A stretch of DNA of 64,000 bases, taken from NCBI GenBank assembly GCA_016712025.1, contig JADJRW010000009.1, positions 16,066-80,065 on the forward strand, given 5' to 3'. Shown here piece after piece: positions 1,447-9,727 of the stretch (position 1 is the stretch's first letter; every line of letters starts with the position of its first letter). The notes beneath the pieces were generated by a model. It did no database searches. It saw only the letters and a program-made list of their open reading frames with translations, and was not told where the DNA came from. Both the position numbers and the translations under genes were made by a program. This DNA is from Flavobacteriales bacterium. GTDB lineage: Bacteria; Bacteroidota; Bacteroidia; Flavobacteriales_F; PHOS-HE28.

Positions 1447-2906
1447 AGCTGCTCAAGGACCTGCTCTACAGGGCACGCCTCGAACAGGTGGTCGGATCCA
1501 CACACACCGCTATCGAGAAGCTCTGCTTCGACAGCCGTGAGGTGGTCCCCTTCACGGCGTTCGTGGCTGTGAAAGGCACCCGCAGCGATGGGCACGATCA
1601 CATCGTCACGGCGGTGGAACGCGGTGCCACGGCGATCATCTGCGAGCATCTTCCGGAAGAGCAGAAGGAGGGTGTGACCTATGTGCGCGTGGTGAACAGC
1701 GCCCAAGCGTTGGCACTGATGTCCGCGAACTTCTTCGACCATCCTTCCCGCGAACTGAAACTGATCGGTATCACCGGCACCAATGGCAAAACGAGCGTCG
1801 CCACACTGCTCTATCGCCTTTGCCGCACCCTCGGTATCAAAGCCGGTTTGATCAGCACGGTGGAGATCCGCATCGGACAACGCACGGTTCCGTCCACGCA
1901 CACCACGCCCGATGCTGTTCGCCTGAACGAACTGCTCTCCGAGATGGTGGCGGAGAAGTGTACGCACTGCTTCATGGAAGTGAGCAGCCACAGCGTGGTA
2001 CAGGAGCGTATCACAGGGCTGCATTTCAGGGTCGGGGTGTTCACCAACATCACGCACGATCATCTGGACTACCACGGCACCTTCGCGGCCTACATCGAAG
2101 CGAAGAAGCGCTTCTTCGATCAGCTTGGCCGCAATGCCCTGGCCCTGGTGAACGCGGACGATGTGAACAGCGCCGTGATGGTGCAGAACACCAAGGCCAC
2201 CAAGCGCTCCTTCGCGGTGCAGGGTCTGGCGGACCACCGCGCACGCATCATCGAGAACCAACTCACCGGCCTGCATCTCAATATCGATGGCCGCGATGTG
2301 TACACGCGCCTGGTCGGGGCGTTCAATGCGAGCAACTTGCTCGCGGTCTATGCTACAGCGGTGCATCTCGGTTTGCAGCCGGTGGATGTGCTCACAGCGC
2401 TCAGCGATCTCGAACCGCCGCGGGGCCGCTTCCAAGTGGTGCGTGGCCCGAGCGGTGTGCTCGGCATCGTGGACTATGCGCATACCCCGGACGCGCTGAA
2501 GAACGTCCTGAGCACCATCAATGAAGTATGTGGCGATGATGAGCAGGTGATCACCGTGGTGGGTTGTGGCGGTGATCGCGATCGCGCCAAGCGTCCCGTG
2601 ATGGCCCGCCTCGCGGTGGAGCTCAGCCACCGTGTCGTACTCACCAGCGACAATCCGCGCAGCGAGGATCCCATGGCCATCCTGCAAGAGATGCGCGGCG
2701 GTGTTGCCGCGGTTGACGCGGACCGCGCATTCGTGAACGCCGATCGGCGCGAAGCCATCCGCCAGGCCGTGTCCATGGCACGCCCCGGCGATGTGGTGCT
2801 CGTAGCGGGCAAAGGCCACGAGACCTATCAGGAGATCTCCGGGGTGAAGCACCCTTTCGATGATGCCGCTGTGCTGAAGGAAACGCTTGAACTGATGCAC
2901 AAGTAA
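1443..2906 (+). CDS. murE: UDP-N-acetylmuramoyl-L-alanyl-D-glutamate--2,6-diaminopimelate ligase
   Basis: 487-aa ORF with Mur ligase P-loop ([10 protein letters not shown]), DNPR motif ([11 protein letters not shown]) and dcw position between ftsI and mraY. Start ATG overlaps the ftsI stop (ATGA). Confidence 0.93.
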
Positions 2907-4153
2907 TGCTGTACCACCTGTTCAAAGCGATGGACTTCGCGCTGCCCGGATCGGGGGCGTTCAACTTCATCTCCTTCCGCGCGGCGATGGCGGTGTTCGC
3001 CTCGCTCATCATCAGCTTTTGGTTCGGCAAAGGCATCATCAAGCTCCTGCGCCGCATGCAGGTTGGCGAGACGGTGCGCGACCTGGGCTTGGATGGGCAA
3101 CTGAGCAAGCAAGGCACGCCAACGATGGGTGGCCTCATCATCCTCAGCGCGATCCTTATCCCCACGCTGCTCTTCGCGAAGCTGAACAACATCTACATCC
3201 TGCTGATGCTCGTGGCCACGGTGTGGCTCGGGACCATCGGCTTCATCGACGACTACATCAAGGTCTTCAAGAAGGACAAGCGTGGTCTGGCCGGCAAGTT
3301 CAAGGTGGTGGGGCAGGTGGGTATCGGCATCATCGTGGGTGCGGTGGTGTATTTCCATCCGTCCATCCGTACCAAGGTGGAGGTACCGCAGGTGCTCGCT
3401 GAGCAACTGGATCCGGCCGCCCTCAGCACCTTCATCGAAGAGGATGGTACAGCACACTTCCTGCTGGACCGCAAGAGCCCGAACACCACCATTCCCTTCG
3501 TCAAGGGCAATGAGTTCAACTACTCCTCCATCCTTGGTCTCTTCGGCCGCGAGGCGCGCAACTATACCTGGTTGCTCTACATCCTCATCGTCATCTTCAT
3601 CATCACCGCCGTGAGCAATGGCGCGAACATCACCGACGGCCTTGATGGATTGGCTACTGGCACGTCCGCGATCATGGTGCTCGCCCTCGGCGTGCTCGCC
3701 TATGTGAGCGGCAACATCATCTTCTCGGAATACCTCGACATCATGTACATCCCCGACAGCGGGGAACTCGCCGTGTTCATCGGTGCGATGCTGGGCGCAT
3801 GCATCGGCTTCCTCTGGTACAATGCCTACCCTGCGCAGGTCTTCATGGGCGATACCGGAAGCCTCGCGTTGGGCGGCATCATCGCCACGCTGGCCATTCT
3901 CGTGCGCAAGGAGCTGTTGATCCCTGTGCTCTGTGGCGTGTTCCTCGTGGAGAATTTGAGCGTGGTGATGCAGGTGTCGTGGTTCAAGTACACGCGCCGC
4001 AAGTATGGCGAAGGCCGCAGGATCTTCCTGATGTCGCCGCTGCACCACCACTTCCAAAAGGCCGGCGTACACGAGAGCAAGATCGTGAGCCGCTTCTGGA
4101 TCGTCGGCATCATGCTCGCCGTACTCAGCATCGTAACCCTCAAGCTGCGATGA
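2906..4153 (+). CDS. mraY: Phospho-N-acetylmuramoyl-pentapeptide transferase
   Basis: 415-aa polytopic membrane protein with MraY signatures (NxxNxxDGxDGL: [13 protein letters not shown]; C-terminal HHHF). 1-nt overlap with the murE stop. Confidence 0.94.
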
Positions 4154-5496
4154 GGAAGCTGGTGATCCTCGGTGCGCAGGAGAGCGGCGTGGGCGCGGCG
4201 TTGCTCGCCAAGAAGCTTGGCATACCCGTGTTCGTGAGCGATGGCGGAAGCATCAAGCCGAATTACCGCGAAACACTCACCGCGAACGACATTGAATTCG
4301 AAGAGGGCGGCCACACCGCCATGAAGGTGTTGGAGGCCGATGAAGTGGTGAAGAGCCCTGGCATTCCGGATACCGCTACGCTGGTGGCCGCCGCCATCGA
4401 TCGCGGCATCCCGGTGATCAGCGAGATCGAACTCGCCGCGCGCCACACCACCGCACCCATCGTGGCGATCACCGGCAGCAACGGCAAGACCACCACCACC
4501 TTGCTCACCCACCACATCCTGCGCAAGGCCGGGCTCGACGCCGGGCTCGGTGGGAATGTGGGCCGGAGTTTCGCGGCCCTGCTCGCGGAGCGCGACCATG
4601 CGCTGTACGTGCTCGAGTTGAGCAGCTTCCAACTGGACGGCATCCGCGCCTTCCGCCCGCATATCGCGGTGCTGCTCAATATCACGCCGGACCACCTGGA
4701 CCGGTACCAGTACAACATGGACCACTATGCGGCGAGCAAGTTCCGCATCGCCATGAACCAGACCGCTGCGGACCATTTCATCCACAGCGATGACGACCCC
4801 GAGGTACGTCGCGGGCTTGCCGAGCATACCGTGCGCGCCAAGCGCTGGCCGATCAGCATCGAACACCAAGTGCCCGAAGGAGGCTTCCTCCGCGACGGCC
4901 ATCTCCATATCAACGCTTCCACCCACCCGGACCCAACCCCCCTTCGCATGAGCCTGATCGAACTAGCGCTACAAGGCAAGCACAACGCTTACAACTCCAT
5001 GGCCGCGGGCATCGCCGCCCGTATCCTCGAAGTGCGCAAGGAAAGCGTGCGTGAGAGCCTCAGCGATTTCCAGAACGTGGAGCATCGCCTTGAGCGCATC
5101 GGCCTGGTGAACGGTGTCGAGTTCATAAACGATTCCAAAGCCACGAACGTGAACAGCGCGTGGTACGCGTTGGAAACGATGGACAAACCGGTGATCTGGA
5201 TCGCCGGTGGCGTGGACAAGGGCAACGACTACACCGCGCTCATGGACCTGGTGAAGAACAAGGTGAAGGCCATCGTTTGCCTCGGGAAGGACAACGAGAA
5301 ACTGCGCAAGGTCTTCGAAACCAAAGTGCCGCACATGGTAGAGGTGGAGAGCGCCGAACGCGCGGTGAACGCCGCGTACGAACTGAGCGAGCCGGGTGAC
5401 GTGGTCCTGCTCAGCCCTGCCTGCGCCAGCTTCGATCTGTTCGAGAACTACGAGGAACGGGGTCGCAGATTCAAAACCGCTGTAAAGGCACTCTGA
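4150..5496 (+). CDS. murD: UDP-N-acetylmuramoylalanine--D-glutamate ligase
   Basis: The ORF track extends to 3799, but the conserved MurD N-terminus ([24 protein letters not shown]) begins at ATG 4150, overlapping the mraY stop. P-loop [11 protein letters not shown] and C-terminal Mur ligase domain present. Confidence 0.92.
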
Positions 5497-5528
5497 TCCA
5501 GAACGCACCGATCCATATCCCACGGACC

Positions 5529-6041
5529 ATGGACAACGAAACACTGCACCGCCTTACCGCAGCGCGCAACGCCGCCGATCTGGTGCGTGCCCGCAGCCGC
5601 TCGCTCGACGAACTGGTGAGCGCACCGCACCGCCTTGAGTTCACCGGCACGTTGCGCGGCGTGGAGTACATCAATGATTCGAAGGCCACCTACCTCGATG
5701 CCTCCCTGGCCGCGATCGCCGCCATCGAGAAGCCCGTGGTGTGGATCACCGGTGCGCTGCCGGAGGATGCACGGCAGGAGGGCGTGCGTTCCTTTCTGCA
5801 CGAACACTTGAGCGCGTTGGTGCTCTTCGGTACGGAAGGCGTGGATCGTGTGGAGGAACTGCGCCCGTGGATGGAACAGGTGTACCATGCCGCCGAACTG
5901 CGCACCGCTGTTTTCCTCGCGCATGAACTGGCACGTAGTGGCGACGTGGTGCTCTTCAGTCCGGCGTGCCCAAGTGGCGACGGCTTCGCCAACTACGAGG
6001 AACGTGGACACGCTTTCAAACGCATGGTACGCGACCTCTGA
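5529..6041 (+). CDS. Stand-alone Mur ligase C-terminal domain protein, diverged paralog of the MurD C-terminal domain (170 aa)
   Basis: By-eye alignment to the murD C-terminus encoded just upstream: HRLE, GVE(F/Y)INDSKAT, KPV(I/V)WI(A/T)G, GDVVL(L/F)SPAC(A/P)S, F(E/A)NYEERG(R/H)xFK all conserved. Approximately 35-40% identity over ~140 aa. No N-terminal or central ATPase domain. 32-bp spacer after murD, and the ftsW start follows 15 bp after its stop. Confidence 0.7.
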   Translation: MDNETLHRLTAARNAADLVRARSRSLDELVSAPHRLEFTGTLRGVEYINDSKATYLDASLAAIAAIEKPVVWITGALPEDARQEGVRSFLHEHLSALVLFGTEGVDRVEELRPWMEQVYHAAELRTAVFLAHELARSGDVVLFSPACPSGDGFANYEERGHAFKRMVRDL

Positions 6042-6055
6042 TCACAATTGATGCG

Positions 6056-7240
6056 ATGAACCGCCTCTTCCAAGAACACCTCCGCGGGGACAGGACCATC
6101 TGGATGGTGGCCCTGCTGCTTGGCATGGTCAGCTTGCTGGCCGTGTACAGCTCCATCGCATCGCTGGCGTTCAAGCGCGAAGGCGGAAGCACCTTGCATT
6201 TCCTCTTCAAGCACGGCATGATGCTCGCCACCGGTGGGGTGATCATGTACTATGCGCACCGGTTGAAGTTCGGGGTGTACTCCAAGCTGTCCCAACTTCT
6301 GTTCGGCGTTACGGTGGGCCTGTTGGTGCTCACGCTCGTGTTGGGCACGAACCTGAACGATGCCAGCCGCTGGCTGAGGATCCCCATCATCGGCCAGAGC
6401 TTCCAGACGAGCGATCTCGCCAAGGTGGTCCTCATCGTTTTTCTAGCGCGCGTACTTGGCAAACGACATGAGGAGCCTTGGACGTTCCGCGATGTCATGT
6501 TGAAACTCATGCTCCCCATCGGCGCTATTTGCGGCACCATCCTTCCCGCCAACTTCAGCACGGCCGCGATCCTCTTCCTGGTGTGCATGGTGGTGCTCTT
6601 CATCGGTGGCGTTCCGCTGAAATGGATCGGCTCAGTGGTGCTGTTGGCGGCGGGCGCCTTCGCGTTGTTGATCGCGGCGAACGAGCTGGGCGACCTCGGT
6701 GTGCTGCCGCGCGTGGAGACCTGGCAAGCGCGGCTCGAGAACCACGGTAGCGACGATAGCGATGCGAACTACCAAGTGGAGCACGCCAAGATCGCGATCG
6801 CCAGCGGTGGACTCCTGCCGAACGGTCCGGGTAGTGGCACTTCGCGGAACTTCCTTCCGCATCCTTACTCGGATATGATCTATGCCTTCATCATCGAAGA
6901 GTACGGTAGCATCCTCGGCGGCCTCGGGCTCTTGCTGCTCTATCTGATCCTGATGGGGCGTGCGGTCCGCATCGCATCGAAGTGCCCGAAGATGTTCGGC
7001 TCGCTCGTGGCGGTGGGTCTCAGCCTCAGCCTCGTGCTACAGGCGATGATCAATATGGCCGTGGCCGTCAATCTCGTTCCCGTCACTGGCCAGCCCCTTC
7101 CGCTCGTAAGTATGGGCGGCACCTCCATCTGGTTCACCTGTTTGATGATCGGCATCGTGCTCAGTGTGAGCCGAAGCGTGTACGACGAAGCCCAAGTAGA
7201 TGTCCAACCCAAAACCAGAACCGCAACAGCGGCCGCTTAA
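6056..7240 (+). CDS. ftsW: Cell division peptidoglycan polymerase FtsW (SEDS family)
   Basis: Multi-TM SEDS protein (FtsW/RodA-like loops) between murD and murG. Start moved to the internal ATG (MNRLFQEH...) because the ORF-track upstream extension overlaps the preceding gene. Confidence 0.88.
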   Translation: MNRLFQEHLRGDRTIWMVALLLGMVSLLAVYSSIASLAFKREGGSTLHFLFKHGMMLATGGVIMYYAHRLKFGVYSKLSQLLFGVTVGLLVLTLVLGTNLNDASRWLRIPIIGQSFQTSDLAKVVLIVFLARVLGKRHEEPWTFRDVMLKLMLPIGAICGTILPANFSTAAILFLVCMVVLFIGGVPLKWIGSVVLLAAGAFALLIAANELGDLGVLPRVETWQARLENHGSDDSDANYQVEHAKIAIASGGLLPNGPGSGTSRNFLPHPYSDMIYAFIIEEYGSILGGLGLLLLYLILMGRAVRIASKCPKMFGSLVAVGLSLSLVLQAMINMAVAVNLVPVTGQPLPLVSMGGTSIWFTCLMIGIVLSVSRSVYDEAQVDVQPKTRTATAAA

Positions 7241-8363
7241 GCTGATGATCAGCGGAGGTGGCACCGGCGGCCACATCTTCCCAGCGATCGCCATTGCGAA
7301 CGCTGTGCGCGAGCGCGAGCCCGACGCCGATGTGCTCTTCGTGGGTGCGCTCGGGAAGATGGAGATGGACAAAGTACCCGCCGCAGGATACCGTATCGAA
7401 GGGTTGCCGATTTGCGGGTTCCAGCGCGGTTCGATCATGAAGAACCTCGCGTTGCCCTGGCGGCTGTTGCGCAGCATGATGAAGGCGCGAAGTCTCGTGC
7501 GCACATTCCAGCCGCATGTGGCCGTGGGCGTCGGTGGTTATGCGAGCGGTCCGCTGCTCGCGGCCGCACAGCGCATGGGCGTGCCCACCTTGATACAGGA
7601 GCAGAACAGCTTCCCCGGAAAAACGAACATCTACCTCGCCAAGCGAGTGGATCGCATCTGCGTGGCCTACGATGGCATGGAGCGCTGGTTCCCCAAGGAG
7701 AAGTTGCACCGCACCGGAAATCCGGTACGATCGGAAGTGGTCCGTATCGAAGGCAAGCGCGGCATCGGCATGGAGCATTTCGGCCTGAAGGAAGGGTCTC
7801 CAGTGCTGTTCATCACCGGTGGAAGTCTTGGTGCGCGTGGTATCAACAAAGGGATCCTGAAGGCGCTTCCGCAGTTGAAGGCAGAAGGCATCCAAGTGAT
7901 CTGGCAGACCGGTTCGCCTTTCCTCGCGCAAGCGCTTGAAGCGGCAAGTTCGCTCGGGTACGACGCATGCGTGGTCACGGAGTTCGTGGACCGCATGGAC
8001 CTGGCCTATGCCGTGGCCGATCTGGTGGTGGCCCGCGCTGGGGCGATAAGTGTGAGCGAACTCTGCTTGGTGCAGCTCCCTGCGATCCTCGTTCCGCTGC
8101 CCACCGCTGCGGAGGACCACCAGACCATGAACGCACGTGCGCTCACCGATCGCGGTGCTGCGGTGCTCGTGCGCGACGATCGCACCGAGCAGGACCTGGG
8201 CGCGGTCATTCTCAAACTGATCACCGATCCAGAAGCGCTGCAAGGCTTGCGTCTGCGCATAGCTGGTATGGGCCGCCCGGACGCGGCTCAGGCCATCGCC
8301 GAAGAAACGATCCGGTTGGCACGATCCATTCCCTCGCAGCGGGTAGCTGTGGAAGCGGCATGA
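7200..8363 (+). CDS. murG: UDP-N-acetylglucosamine--N-acetylmuramyl-(pentapeptide) pyrophosphoryl-undecaprenol N-acetylglucosamine transferase
   Basis: GT28 signatures (ISGGGTGGHIFPAIAIA; C-terminal GxxxEL...H motif) and dcw position. Start ambiguous: 7200 overlaps the ftsW end by 41 nt, or the internal Met at ~7245. Confidence 0.9.
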   Translation: MSNPKPEPQQRPLKLMISGGGTGGHIFPAIAIANAVREREPDADVLFVGALGKMEMDKVPAAGYRIEGLPICGFQRGSIMKNLALPWRLLRSMMKARSLVRTFQPHVAVGVGGYASGPLLAAAQRMGVPTLIQEQNSFPGKTNIYLAKRVDRICVAYDGMERWFPKEKLHRTGNPVRSEVVRIEGKRGIGMEHFGLKEGSPVLFITGGSLGARGINKGILKALPQLKAEGIQVIWQTGSPFLAQALEAASSLGYDACVVTEFVDRMDLAYAVADLVVARAGAISVSELCLVQLPAILVPLPTAAEDHQTMNARALTDRGAAVLVRDDRTEQDLGAVILKLITDPEALQGLRLRIAGMGRPDAAQAIAEETIRLARSIPSQRVAVEAA

Positions 8364-9727
8364 GCATCCGTCCACATAGCCTGTTCTTCGTCGGTATCGG
8401 CGGCATCGGCATGAGCGGTCTCGCGCGCTACTTCCGCCAGCAAGGGGCACGCGTCGCCGGATATGATCGCACGCCCTCGGCACTCACCGATCAACTGCGC
8501 GCCGAAGGCATTGATGTGCAGTTCGACGAGGATCCGGAACTCATCCCCGTCGATCTGCGCCAAGCCGCGAAGGAAGTGCTCGTGGTGCGCACGCCTGCTG
8601 TGCCTGCCTCCAGCCCACTGCTCGCGTTTTGGAACGAGCAAGGCGCACGCATGCTCAAGCGCAGTGAAGTGCTAGGTATGATCACCGAGGACCGCCGAAC
8701 GATCGCCGTGGCAGGCACGCATGGCAAGACCACGGTGAGCACCATGGTCGCGCATCTGCTGCGCCACGGTGGCAAACGCGTCAACGCCTTCCTCGGCGGC
8801 ATCAGCGCCAACTACGGCACCAACGTGCTGCTCGACGCGCAGGCCGAACTGAACGTGGTCGAAGCCGATGAGTACGATCGCAGCTTCTTGCGCTTGCATC
8901 CGTCGGAAGCGATCATCACCGCGATGGATCCCGATCACCTGGACATCTACGGAACGCCCGAGGCGATGGTGGCCTCCTACAACGAGTTCGCCGCGCTCTG
9001 CACCGGACGCATCCTCGTACACGAACGCGCATCCGCCGCACTGCTGCAGGGACAGCGCACGAGCTATGCGATCGGCGGTAAAAGCGTTCCGCGCGCGGAA
9101 GAGGTTCGCGTGGAGAATGGCGCCTACCACTTCGATCTCGTCACCGAGCGCGGTACACTGCGCGACCTGCGCCTCGGGATGCCCGGACGGCACAATGTGG
9201 AGAACGCCACCGCCGCCGCGGCCATGGCCCAATACATCGGCGTGGACGATGCGCGCTTGCGCGAAGGGCTCGCTTCGTTCACAGGTGTGGAACGCCGTTT
9301 CCAAACGATCGTGAGCAACACGCACATGGTCTATGTGGATGACTACGCGCACCATCCAGCCGAACTGGAAGCCACGATCCGTTCCGCGCGTGAACTCTAT
9401 CCCGATCGCCACCTCACCGGCATCTTCCAGCCGCACCTCTTCACCCGCACGCGCGACTTCGCGCCGGGTTTCGCCAACAGCCTGGCGCTGCTCGATACGC
9501 TCTACCTGCTCGACATCTATCCGGCACGCGAGGAACCCATCCCGGGGATCACCTCAGAATGGCTGCTCCAGCAAGTACCGATGCAGGACAAGCACCTGCT
9601 CGCGCGCGAAGAAGTGCTGCGCCGCATCGTGGAGGCGCGCATCGAAGTGCTCCTCACGCTGGGTGCCGGGGATATCGATCGCCTCGTACCCCGCATCGCT
9701 GAACTGCTTCAACACCAAGCCGCATGA
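8360..9727 (+). CDS. murC: UDP-N-acetylmuramate--L-alanine ligase
   Basis: The conserved MurC N-terminus MSIRPHSLFFVGIGGIGMSGLARY begins at ATG 8360 (ATGA overlap with the murG stop). The ORF-track 5' extension to 7967 is a stop-free artefact. P-loop AGTHGKTT. Confidence 0.92.
   Translation: MSIRPHSLFFVGIGGIGMSGLARYFRQQGARVAGYDRTPSALTDQLRAEGIDVQFDEDPELIPVDLRQAAKEVLVVRTPAVPASSPLLAFWNEQGARMLKRSEVLGMITEDRRTIAVAGTHGKTTVSTMVAHLLRHGGKRVNAFLGGISANYGTNVLLDAQAELNVVEADEYDRSFLRLHPSEAIITAMDPDHLDIYGTPEAMVASYNEFAALCTGRILVHERASAALLQGQRTSYAIGGKSVPRAEEVRVENGAYHFDLVTERGTLRDLRLGMPGRHNVENATAAAAMAQYIGVDDARLREGLASFTGVERRFQTIVSNTHMVYVDDYAHHPAELEATIRSARELYPDRHLTGIFQPHLFTRTRDFAPGFANSLALLDTLYLLDIYPAREEPIPGITSEWLLQQVPMQDKHLLAREEVLRRIVEARIEVLLTLGAGDIDRLVPRIAELLQHQAA

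Follow-up and report, generated by a model that had tools for sequence, protein, structure and literature searches.

The dcw cluster is among the most conserved gene arrays of bacteria, and its gene content is regarded as well known. Here, we analyzed a 64,000-nt stretch of a Flavobacteriales bacterium assembly (GCA_016712025.1, contig JADJRW010000009.1, positions 16,066 to 80,065 of the forward strand), hereafter called the window. As judged from the list of open reading frames (ORFs) and Pfam searches, it contains a dcw cluster of the Bacteroidota type with all genes on the + strand, and an additional gene is located in this cluster between murD and ftsW. The product of this gene and its family, a stand-alone paralogue of the MurD C-terminal domain (C-domain), are referred to below as mini. 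A preliminary description of this DNA had placed a 170-aa ORF 32 nt after murD in a space of 560 bp; the ORF and its position were confirmed, and the space between murD and ftsW measures 559 bp. The reading frame of mini differs from that of murD. The immediate locus is as follows (window coordinates):

4150-5496, + strand: murD, the parent gene, 448 aa, with three domains and the MurD-invariant residues kept (Pfam, TIGR01087)
5497-5528, + strand: murD-mini spacer, 32 nt (sequence and promoter/terminator scan)
5529-6041, + strand: mini, 170 aa plus stop codon, ATG start, predicted pseudoenzyme (ORF list, homology, synteny, ratio of nonsynonymous to synonymous substitution rates [dN/dS], and model)
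6056-7240, + strand: ftsW (SEDS family), beginning 14 nt past the mini stop codon (Pfam FTSW_RODA_SPOVE, 230.8 bits; synteny)

By BLASTP, 61 of 150 aligned residues of mini (41%; E value of 1e-31) were identical to those of the MurD encoded in the same window, with the alignment covering MurD residues 303-448. All the sequence blocks that had previously been picked out by eye (HRLE, GVE[F/Y]INDSKAT, KPV[I/V]WI[A/T]G, GDVVL[L/F]SPAC, and NYEERG[R/H]xFK) were found in this alignment. The similarity is far greater than expected by chance. A protein identity of 41% is too low for an assembly duplicate, which upholds the view that the duplication is old and not an assembly repeat. The alignment with E. 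coli MurD spans residues 277-436, and the start of the duplicated piece thus falls within the last central-domain helix.

Pfam assigned to mini the domain Mur_ligase_C alone (PF02875; 40.4 bits versus a gathering threshold of 28.4), and the profile was covered end to end. Neither an N-terminal UDP-MurNAc-binding domain (MurD_N or MurD-like_N) nor the central ATPase domain Mur_ligase_M (PF08245) was detected in mini by Pfam, as the preliminary description had also concluded. Against the murD model TIGR01087, mini scored 118.5 bits, below the cut-off of 211.95, and matched model positions 295-440 only. Mini is a member of the Mur_ligase_C domain family and fails every whole-protein criterion for MurD. 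The window MurD itself carries MurD_N (together with MurD-like_N), Mur_ligase_M, and Mur_ligase_C, reaches 412.7 bits with TIGR01087, and can be aligned to E. coli MurD (1e0d); its own C-domain is intact. The name cyanophycin synthetase, which is given to family members in some NCBI records, was rejected as an identity: NCBIfam, in which TIGR02068 and NF010623 were considered, returned the partial murD match only. This label appears to stem from the shared PF02875 domain only. No NCBIfam MurT match was obtained for mini.

The AlphaFold2 model of mini, computed from a 121-sequence alignment, had a mean predicted local distance difference test (pLDDT) score of 85.4 and consisted of a long N-terminal helix (residues 3-29, of lower confidence) followed by an alternating beta/alpha domain. 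When the PDB was searched with this model by Foldseek, the 33 best matches were all MurD chains, aligned over 142-164 columns in their C-terminal part, and MurE, MurF, and Mpl ranked far behind. The best match had an E value of 1.5e-12, a template modeling (TM) score of 0.72 on the query, and a root mean square deviation of 2.7 Å over 144 columns. By this model, the mini product keeps the MurD C-domain fold. The helix preceding this domain was located as follows:

5535-5615, + strand: long N-terminal helix, residues 3-29, equivalent to the last MurD central-domain helix plus the inter-domain linker (AlphaFold2, block pLDDT 61-75)

Only L18, A21, and R22 of this helix are conserved, and column comparison with the cognate MurDs showed that the inter-domain linker of mini is 4 residues shorter than that of MurD.

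The gene was found to be widespread. Among 5.8 billion proteins searched, at least 120 were 43-64% identical to mini over the full length; they measure 132-183 aa and, with few exceptions, 160-183 aa. The labelled close relatives were all from metagenome-assembled genomes (MAGs) named 'Flavobacteriales bacterium', and members of the family are listed in databases as hypothetical protein, cyanophycin synthetase, glutamate ligase domain-containing protein, or MurD. When GTDB was scanned at one genome per species for two peptide patterns specific to the family (ANYEERGx[EA] and VLFSPACPS), up to 282 species genomes turned out to encode a mini relative. The synteny was then resolved for the best 80 of these 282 stretches, which lie on 80 distinct contigs from short-read and long-read assemblies. 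In all 80 loci, an intact ORF of 162-177 aa follows a full-length murD and precedes ftsW, with long-read frameshifts as the only breaks. The spacer between murD and mini was 2-100 nt in 79 of the 80 loci (the exception being a long-read frameshift) and had no conserved frame relation to murD. The nearest relatives, with 95% protein identity, came from two activated-sludge MAGs, L002 and L003 (Danish and Swedish sludge). The window mini shows the features by which the family is defined, namely, the C-domain only, a length of 170 aa, LFSP, loss of the K348 loop, and the slot between murD and ftsW. The arrangement had been noted beforehand as unusual for dcw clusters, and this is supported by homology, fold, and synteny.

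Several irregular loci were inspected individually. An apparent mini-ftsW fusion in L003 and a broken murD in L022 were dismissed as long-read indel errors, as the frames shift again inside ftsW. In L038, an unrelated 152-aa ORF (5550-6008) is located between mini and ftsW; another unrelated ORF, of 122 aa, precedes ftsW in the gap of L148 (3444-3959). By eye, both look like the 'four-helix-bundle' proteins that are frequent between genes in Bacteroidota. Mini is parted from ftsW, not from murD, by an insertion of 2.9 kb in L042 (4934-7865) with three unannotated ORFs of 270, 374, and 322 aa, and these ORFs resemble, again by eye, MlaE/MlaF/MlaD-type ABC transporter genes.

Selection was assessed by the Nei-Gojobori dN/dS on codon alignments, using close pairs without synonymous saturation. 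Distant-pair values were discarded: in these GC-rich genes, synonymous positions suffer from saturation or bias, and even ftsW gives 0.4-0.6. In close ortholog pairs, the dN/dS of mini was 0.02-0.10, similar to that of murD. For mini, the MurD C-domain, the MurD N-terminal plus central domains (N+M), and ftsW, in this order, the values were 0.048, 0.048, 0.046, and 0.031 for the window versus L002; 0.023, 0.050, 0.077, and 0.014 for L045 versus L046; 0.037, 0.043, 0.062, and 0.049 for L050 versus L051; and 0.057, 0.034, 0.078, and 0.024 for L018 versus L020. Over longer distances, the mean pairwise identity was 56% for mini, 76% for the MurD C-domain, 82% for MraY, and 70% for FtsW, and the evolutionary rate of mini is about 2.3 times that of the MurD C-domain. 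Together, the faster long-distance change and the low close-pair dN/dS indicate that the constraint on mini is relaxed relative to the parent domain yet clearly present. The stand-alone set, of 159-204 aa, has a sharp length mode at 170 aa and many invariant residues. Mini is a real protein-coding gene, maintained under selection across hundreds of uncultured Flavobacteriales. The option of a slowly decaying relic, which the preliminary description had kept, was refuted by the conserved length, the intact ORFs, and the purifying range of dN/dS; neither absence from related genomes nor neutral evolution was found.

A second type of stand-alone protein was considered and rejected. Database proteins of 182 aa that seem to contain Mur_ligase_C only (e.g., P0374, P0290, and P0283) retain all elements of the MurD signature (R, K, N, GG, and K). 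These are not a second family; they are MurD fragments from truncated or frameshifted genes, with the conserved Met267 as their first residue. A frameshifted long-read murD in L085 (4345-5549; contig_11794, 3.75 Mb) exemplifies the type of source from which they derive. The residue signature described below cleanly parts the true members of the mini family from these fragments.

For the residue statistics, 549 C-domain sequences were compared, 276 from MurDs (full-length or fragmentary) and 273 from stand-alone proteins, which were drawn from the loci, from both protein searches, and from an exhaustive profile search of 1.84 billion representatives. Residues are numbered as in E. coli MurD, with roles taken from PMC9780078; the K348 column corresponds to K357 in the window MurD. 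By column comparison, four segments of the window mini were assigned:

5628-5639, + strand: H34-R35-L36-E37, equivalent to E. coli H301-R302-x-E304
5673-5690, + strand: N49-D50-S51-K52-A53-T54, equivalent to E. coli N316-D317-S318-K319-A320-T321
5751-5777, + strand: G75-A-L-P-E-D-A-R-Q83, the degenerate MurD GGxDKGNDY loop, with the second Gly and K348 lost
5958-6008, + strand: S144-P-A-C-P-S-G-D-G-F-A-N-Y-E-E-R-G160, the kept SPAC...NYEERG loop and helix start

The last segment covers the equivalents of E. coli S415, F419, N421, F422, R425, and G426. At the K348 position, 95% of the MurDs have Lys, whereas Lys is not among the four most frequent residues of the stand-alone proteins (A, 27%; D, 15%; S, 11%; E, 9%). 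G345, which is Gly in 100% of the MurDs, is lost in the stand-alone proteins, and the other positions of the GGxDKGNDY loop, conserved at 87-93% in the MurDs, are randomized; the window mini has G75-A-L-P-E-D where MurD has GGVDKG. N322 is Asn in 98% of the MurDs versus Phe in 71% of the stand-alone proteins (Y55 in the window mini). R302 is Arg in 99% of the MurDs versus 60% of the stand-alone proteins, 30% of which have Ser, and K319 is Lys in 100% versus 53%, with Arg in 39%. Much of the remaining cleft is conserved in the stand-alone proteins: H301 (98%), E304 (98%), N316 (99%), D317 (99%), S318 (97%), T321 (97%), S415 (97%), Y/F422 (95%), R425 (99%), and G426 (98%). Within the ATP-contact set, to which we assume that K319 belongs, the window mini keeps R35, D50, and K52; family-wide, conservation is 99% for D317, 60% for R302, and 53% for K319, all of which reach 99-100% in the MurDs.

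The stand-alone proteins also have signatures of their own, with LFSP in place of LLSP (96%), A414 replaced by Pro (78%), and L416 replaced by Gly (70%); the window mini reads VVLFSPAC. Conserved residues specific to mini are F/Y55, D57, L60, LFSP, P148, and G150, to which the window subfamily adds R125-T-A-V-F-x-A-x-E133. This last stretch is part of helix 124-135 (consensus ELRTAVFLARELA), which is strongly conserved in the window subfamily, variable at the MurD equivalents, and not conserved in AT-richer subfamilies. The helix is probably solvent-exposed and is a candidate for a new interface.

In MurD, R302 is an ADP contact, K348 is the charge partner of the D-Glu alpha-carboxylate, and D317, T321, S415, and F/Y422 are ligand-contact residues, while K319 is not in the ADP contact list (PMC9780078). 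Because mini has neither the UDP-substrate-binding domain nor the ATPase domain and has lost the K348 loop, G345, N322, and partly R302 and K319, it should be unable to ligate and is predicted to be a non-catalytic pseudoenzyme.

The remaining members of the dcw cluster in the window are as follows:

Before murE, + strand: penicillin-binding protein (PBP) gene
1443-2906, + strand: murE
2906-4153, + strand: mraY
7200-8363, + strand: murG
8360-9727, + strand: murC
After murC, + strand: ftsQ, ftsA, and ftsZ

ATGA start/stop overlaps couple mraY to murD (4150-4153) and murG to murC (8360-8363), which indicates tight translational coupling within the cluster; mini is instead flanked by spacers of 32 and 14 nt. 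In a scan of positions 3800-7400 with a tool that does not cover Bacteroidota promoters, no + strand terminator-like or sigma-70-like promoter site was found to separate mini from murD or ftsW. Together with the tight spacings in the relatives, this is consistent with co-transcription of mini with murD and ftsW. Expression of mini as a read-through or frameshift fusion with murD was ruled out, as the frames differ and the spacer lengths of the relatives follow no frame pattern. Rfam gave no match anywhere in the window. In another locus, L001 (7720-10242; JASGIM010000002.1, the same contig as L023), murG and murC form one 840-aa ORF with Glyco_transf_28 and Mur ligase domains; this bin is derived from nanopore reads, and an indel error is possible.

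More distant forms were found at the same position. The profile search and its follow-ups returned divergent, AT-richer stand-alone proteins of 160-190 aa that are about 35-45% identical to the window mini. All the divergent copies examined sit in the slot between murD and ftsW: P0134 (L082-84), which comes from a Salibacteraceae-labelled MAG and is annotated as 'glutamate ligase domain-containing protein', P0369 (L086), P0237 (L087), and P0207 (L088). The K348 equivalent is absent from nearly all of them. In L088 (4001-5055; ENA ERZ27314325 k141_565774), two tandem stand-alone Mur_ligase_C genes are located between murD and ftsW. Their products, of 174 and 172 aa, are 38% identical to each other, and the pair represents a second, old duplication of mini.

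An unplanned control was available in 76 metagenome loci in which ftsW lies downstream of a murD of the Bacteroidota type. In 63 of them, ftsW follows murD directly (gap of up to 300 nt); a recognizable stand-alone copy is present in the gap in six, an unrelated ORF in one, and an ORF of 142-158 aa without hidden Markov model similarity in another six (L101, L117, L127, L143, L149, and L161). Across the 70 control loci with a single C-domain region, the median murD-ftsW gap was 38 nt. The degenerate gap ORFs belong to a family of at least 168 proteins of 142-160 aa, whose named members are annotated as 'hypothetical protein' and come from MAGs of Crocinitomicaceae, Fluviicola sp., Flavobacteriales, and Bacteroidota. 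Neither Pfam nor NCBIfam gave a match for this family. In a profile-profile comparison by hhalign, it matched the divergent stand-alone family with 96% probability and an E value of 1.6e-9 over 133 collinear columns. Its AlphaFold2 model (pLDDT of 84.2) had much the same order of secondary structure as the window mini, with one helix fewer, and the top four Foldseek matches in the PDB were Mur-ligase C-domains (Mpl, MurE, and MurF), with MurD (4buc) at rank 7; the first match alone passed an E value of 1e-3. In a Fluviicola sp. MAG (L169, 3501-3974), the degenerate gene abuts murD and ftsW. The slot holds a graded series, from 'half active site minus lysine' to 'fold only'. These degenerate relatives, the wide distribution, and the family-wide loss of K348 and other MurD-invariant residues go beyond the preliminary description.

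In a neighbor-joining tree built from representatives (53 stand-alone proteins and 45 MurD C-domains), 52 of the 53 stand-alone proteins formed one pure clade, which neighbors the Bacteroidota MurD C-domains, the one from the window among them. Bootstrap support was 2/100 for the 52-member clade and 2/100 for strict monophyly of all 53; with such negligible support, a single origin is suggested but not shown. The simplest reading is one partial tandem duplication of murD in the ancestor of these Flavobacteriales lineages, an ancient event that would have copied the last central-domain helix and the whole C-terminal domain of murD.

As to function, we consider mini most likely to be a non-catalytic binding subunit of the Mur/divisome machinery, with a probability of roughly 0.6. 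Mini would work by binding rather than catalysis. Its conserved cleft face (the equivalents of H301, N316-D317-S318, T321, S415, Y422, and R425-G426) would serve as a docking face, and the target would be the central domain of a Mur ligase, MurD first. The outcome could be a decoy that tunes MurD in trans or an adaptor through which the soluble Mur enzymes are linked to the steps at the membrane (MraY, MurG, and FtsW). In MurD, the face that is most conserved in the window subfamily closes on the central domain, ATP, and D-Glu. The most direct model is therefore that mini regulates MurD or acts as its decoy, although we propose it only tentatively. An adaptor or scaffold to membrane or other Mur proteins is likewise possible, and is favored by the Crocinitomicaceae form, which has retained the slot and the fold only, and by the natural MurD-FtsW chimeras. 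The two models are nearly tied, and a function other than all those discussed here is rather improbable.

Several observations weigh against this reading, in part or as a whole. The degenerate form is without NDS..T, SPAC, and NYEERG and has new invariant motifs instead (HGK..GMD.FSW.NP and SFPF..W). Since it has lost the cleft residues, a function shared across the superfamily would be independent of them, which favors a fold-based adaptor over a cleft-based decoy. For some of the conserved 'cleft' residues, folding may be the only reason for their retention. In addition, a C-domain acting in trans must compete with the tethered C-domain of MurD itself. All organism-labelled members found in the searches are MAGs. 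Finally, no clear partner for mini emerged from a mirror-tree analysis against murE, mraY, murD N+M, the murD C-domain, ftsW, murG, and murC in the 21 loci with all genes (a subset of L002-L081). The residual correlations of mini were 0.35 with MurC, 0.23 with MurG, 0.18 with FtsW, 0.12 with MurD N+M, and -0.11 with the MurD C-domain, compared with 0.79 for MraY-FtsW and 0.66 for MurE-MurD N+M as positive controls.

The mirror-tree data also bear on the other genes of the cluster. After removal of the background, the two membrane proteins, MraY and FtsW, show strong co-variation (0.79), and a second group is made up of the soluble enzymes MurE, MurD N+M, MurC, and MurG (0.50-0.66). For the MurD C-domain, no co-variation was seen with either group or with the N+M body of MurD itself (0.02).

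Other explanations have to be weighed against a binding subunit. A sensor or buffer for a small ligand (D-Glu, UDP-MurNAc-peptide, or a nucleotide) would fit the 95-99% conservation of the ligand-contact residues D317, T321, S415, and F/Y422 in a family with an identity of only about 56%, and the loss of K348 together with the changes of N322 to Phe, L416 to Gly, and A414 to Pro by the pocket makes it look remodelled, not decayed. However, the pocket of MurD is completed by the central domain and the UDP-N-acetylmuramoyl-L-alanine (UMA) substrate, and a lone C-domain is half a site. The ligand residues are, moreover, all absent from the degenerate slot relatives, and we regard such a role as unlikely. 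Still less probable is an alternative C-domain that replaces, in trans, MurD's own on the N+M body to give an active enzyme with altered amino-acid specificity or regulation. The face meeting the central domain is conserved, the window mini retains R35 and K52 (the R302 and K319 equivalents), and mini always adjoins murD. Yet mini lacks K348 and the GG motif, which 95-100% of the MurDs have, distant ones included, and R302 is replaced in 40% of its members. The C-domain of MurD is itself intact and tethered, with a large local-concentration advantage, and the degenerate relatives are unable to act as a trans C-domain.

The least credible explanation, and a very improbable one, is that mini is a functionless remnant of a partial duplication or an artefact of assembly or annotation. 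This would agree with the faster evolution of mini relative to its neighbors (mean identity of 56%, versus 76% for the MurD C-domain), and databases do hold artefactual stand-alone pieces of the MurD C-terminus, as the 182-aa fragments show. Against it stand the intact ORFs of 162-177 aa in a constant slot in 80 independent species-level assemblies, the close-pair dN/dS of 0.02-0.10, the length mode of 170 aa, and the invariant residues, and 41% identity to murD is incompatible with a collapsed or duplicated repeat.

Mini is probably a new accessory protein of cell-wall synthesis. The presence in the dcw cluster of a conserved extra gene, derived from an enzyme domain but without its catalytic residues, suggests that peptidoglycan precursor synthesis is regulated or assembled in a lineage-specific way. 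The series from full motifs minus K348, through tandem copies, to a form recognizable by profile and fold only would show an enzyme domain turning non-enzymatic at a fixed genomic position. A bolder proposal, which we consider doubtful as a whole, is that the slot in several Flavobacteriales families encodes a dedicated peptidoglycan-precursor subunit, a MurD-derived pseudoenzyme that gates MurD in trans or tethers the Mur ligases to FtsW, MraY, or MurG, and that it has been evolving from a half-active-site mimic (the window form) to a fold-only adaptor (the Crocinitomicaceae form). If true, such a subunit would open up the long-postulated Mur 'metabolon' through a handle that is natural and genetically separable. 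For annotation, the consequence is more immediate, as members of the family go under several names and are mixed in databases with the artefactual 182-aa MurD fragments.

In a full-text literature search, whose coverage excluded most subscription journals, no published description of a stand-alone MurD C-domain gene was found. The closest known relative is the MurD C-domain itself, which has the same fold and shares the H..E, NDS..T, W..G, SPAC.S, and NYEERG motifs with mini. Mini differs in being free-standing, with 170 aa, in the loss of K348, GGxDKGNDY, G345, and N322 and partly of R302 and K319, and in a linker that is 4 residues shorter. The C-domain of Mpl (PDB 3mvn) was crystallized alone and matches both the window and the degenerate models, so that a domain of this kind can fold alone; it is, however, a laboratory fragment of a full-length enzyme and not a natural stand-alone gene.

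In function, the closest analogies are other Mur-ligase derivatives that serve in binding. In the lipid II amidotransferase MurT-GatD, the C-terminal domain of MurT is the docking site for GatD, which hints at how a C-domain can serve in protein-protein binding; unlike mini, MurT retains the central ATPase domain and is catalytic. The plant MurE-like protein PAP11 is a non-catalytic structural subunit and provides a scaffold-like precedent. It gave a weaker fold match to mini (PDB 8r6s chain Q and 8qma chain O; E values of about 3e-5 to 3e-4) and is likewise a Mur-ligase-derived subunit of another machine, the plastid-encoded RNA polymerase. PAP11, however, has all three domains of a full-length MurE homologue, belongs to a eukaryotic organelle, and is unrelated in its partner and origin.

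A further analogy is provided by the natural dcw chimeras MurD-FtsW, MurG-MurC (mainly from Actinobacteria), and MurE-MurF, which have been taken to indicate that the Mur and divisome proteins form a physical complex (Shirakawa et al. 2023, PMC10214165). A mini-type gene is not described in that survey of Mur gene arrangements (PMC10214165). The MurD-FtsW chimeras show that the C-terminus of MurD and the N-terminus of FtsW can be joined in one functional polypeptide, and whether the Mur ligases act as a complex, and how they are linked to the membrane steps, is an open question (PMC10214165). Like these chimeras, mini is a dcw rearrangement with MurD and FtsW as neighbors, and it is located exactly at the murD-ftsW junction. 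The chimeras are fusions of complete enzymes, whereas mini is an extra, partial, and, as predicted, catalytically disabled separate gene; as a free MurD C-domain encoded between MurD and FtsW, it offers a concrete candidate for the question of the Mur complex.

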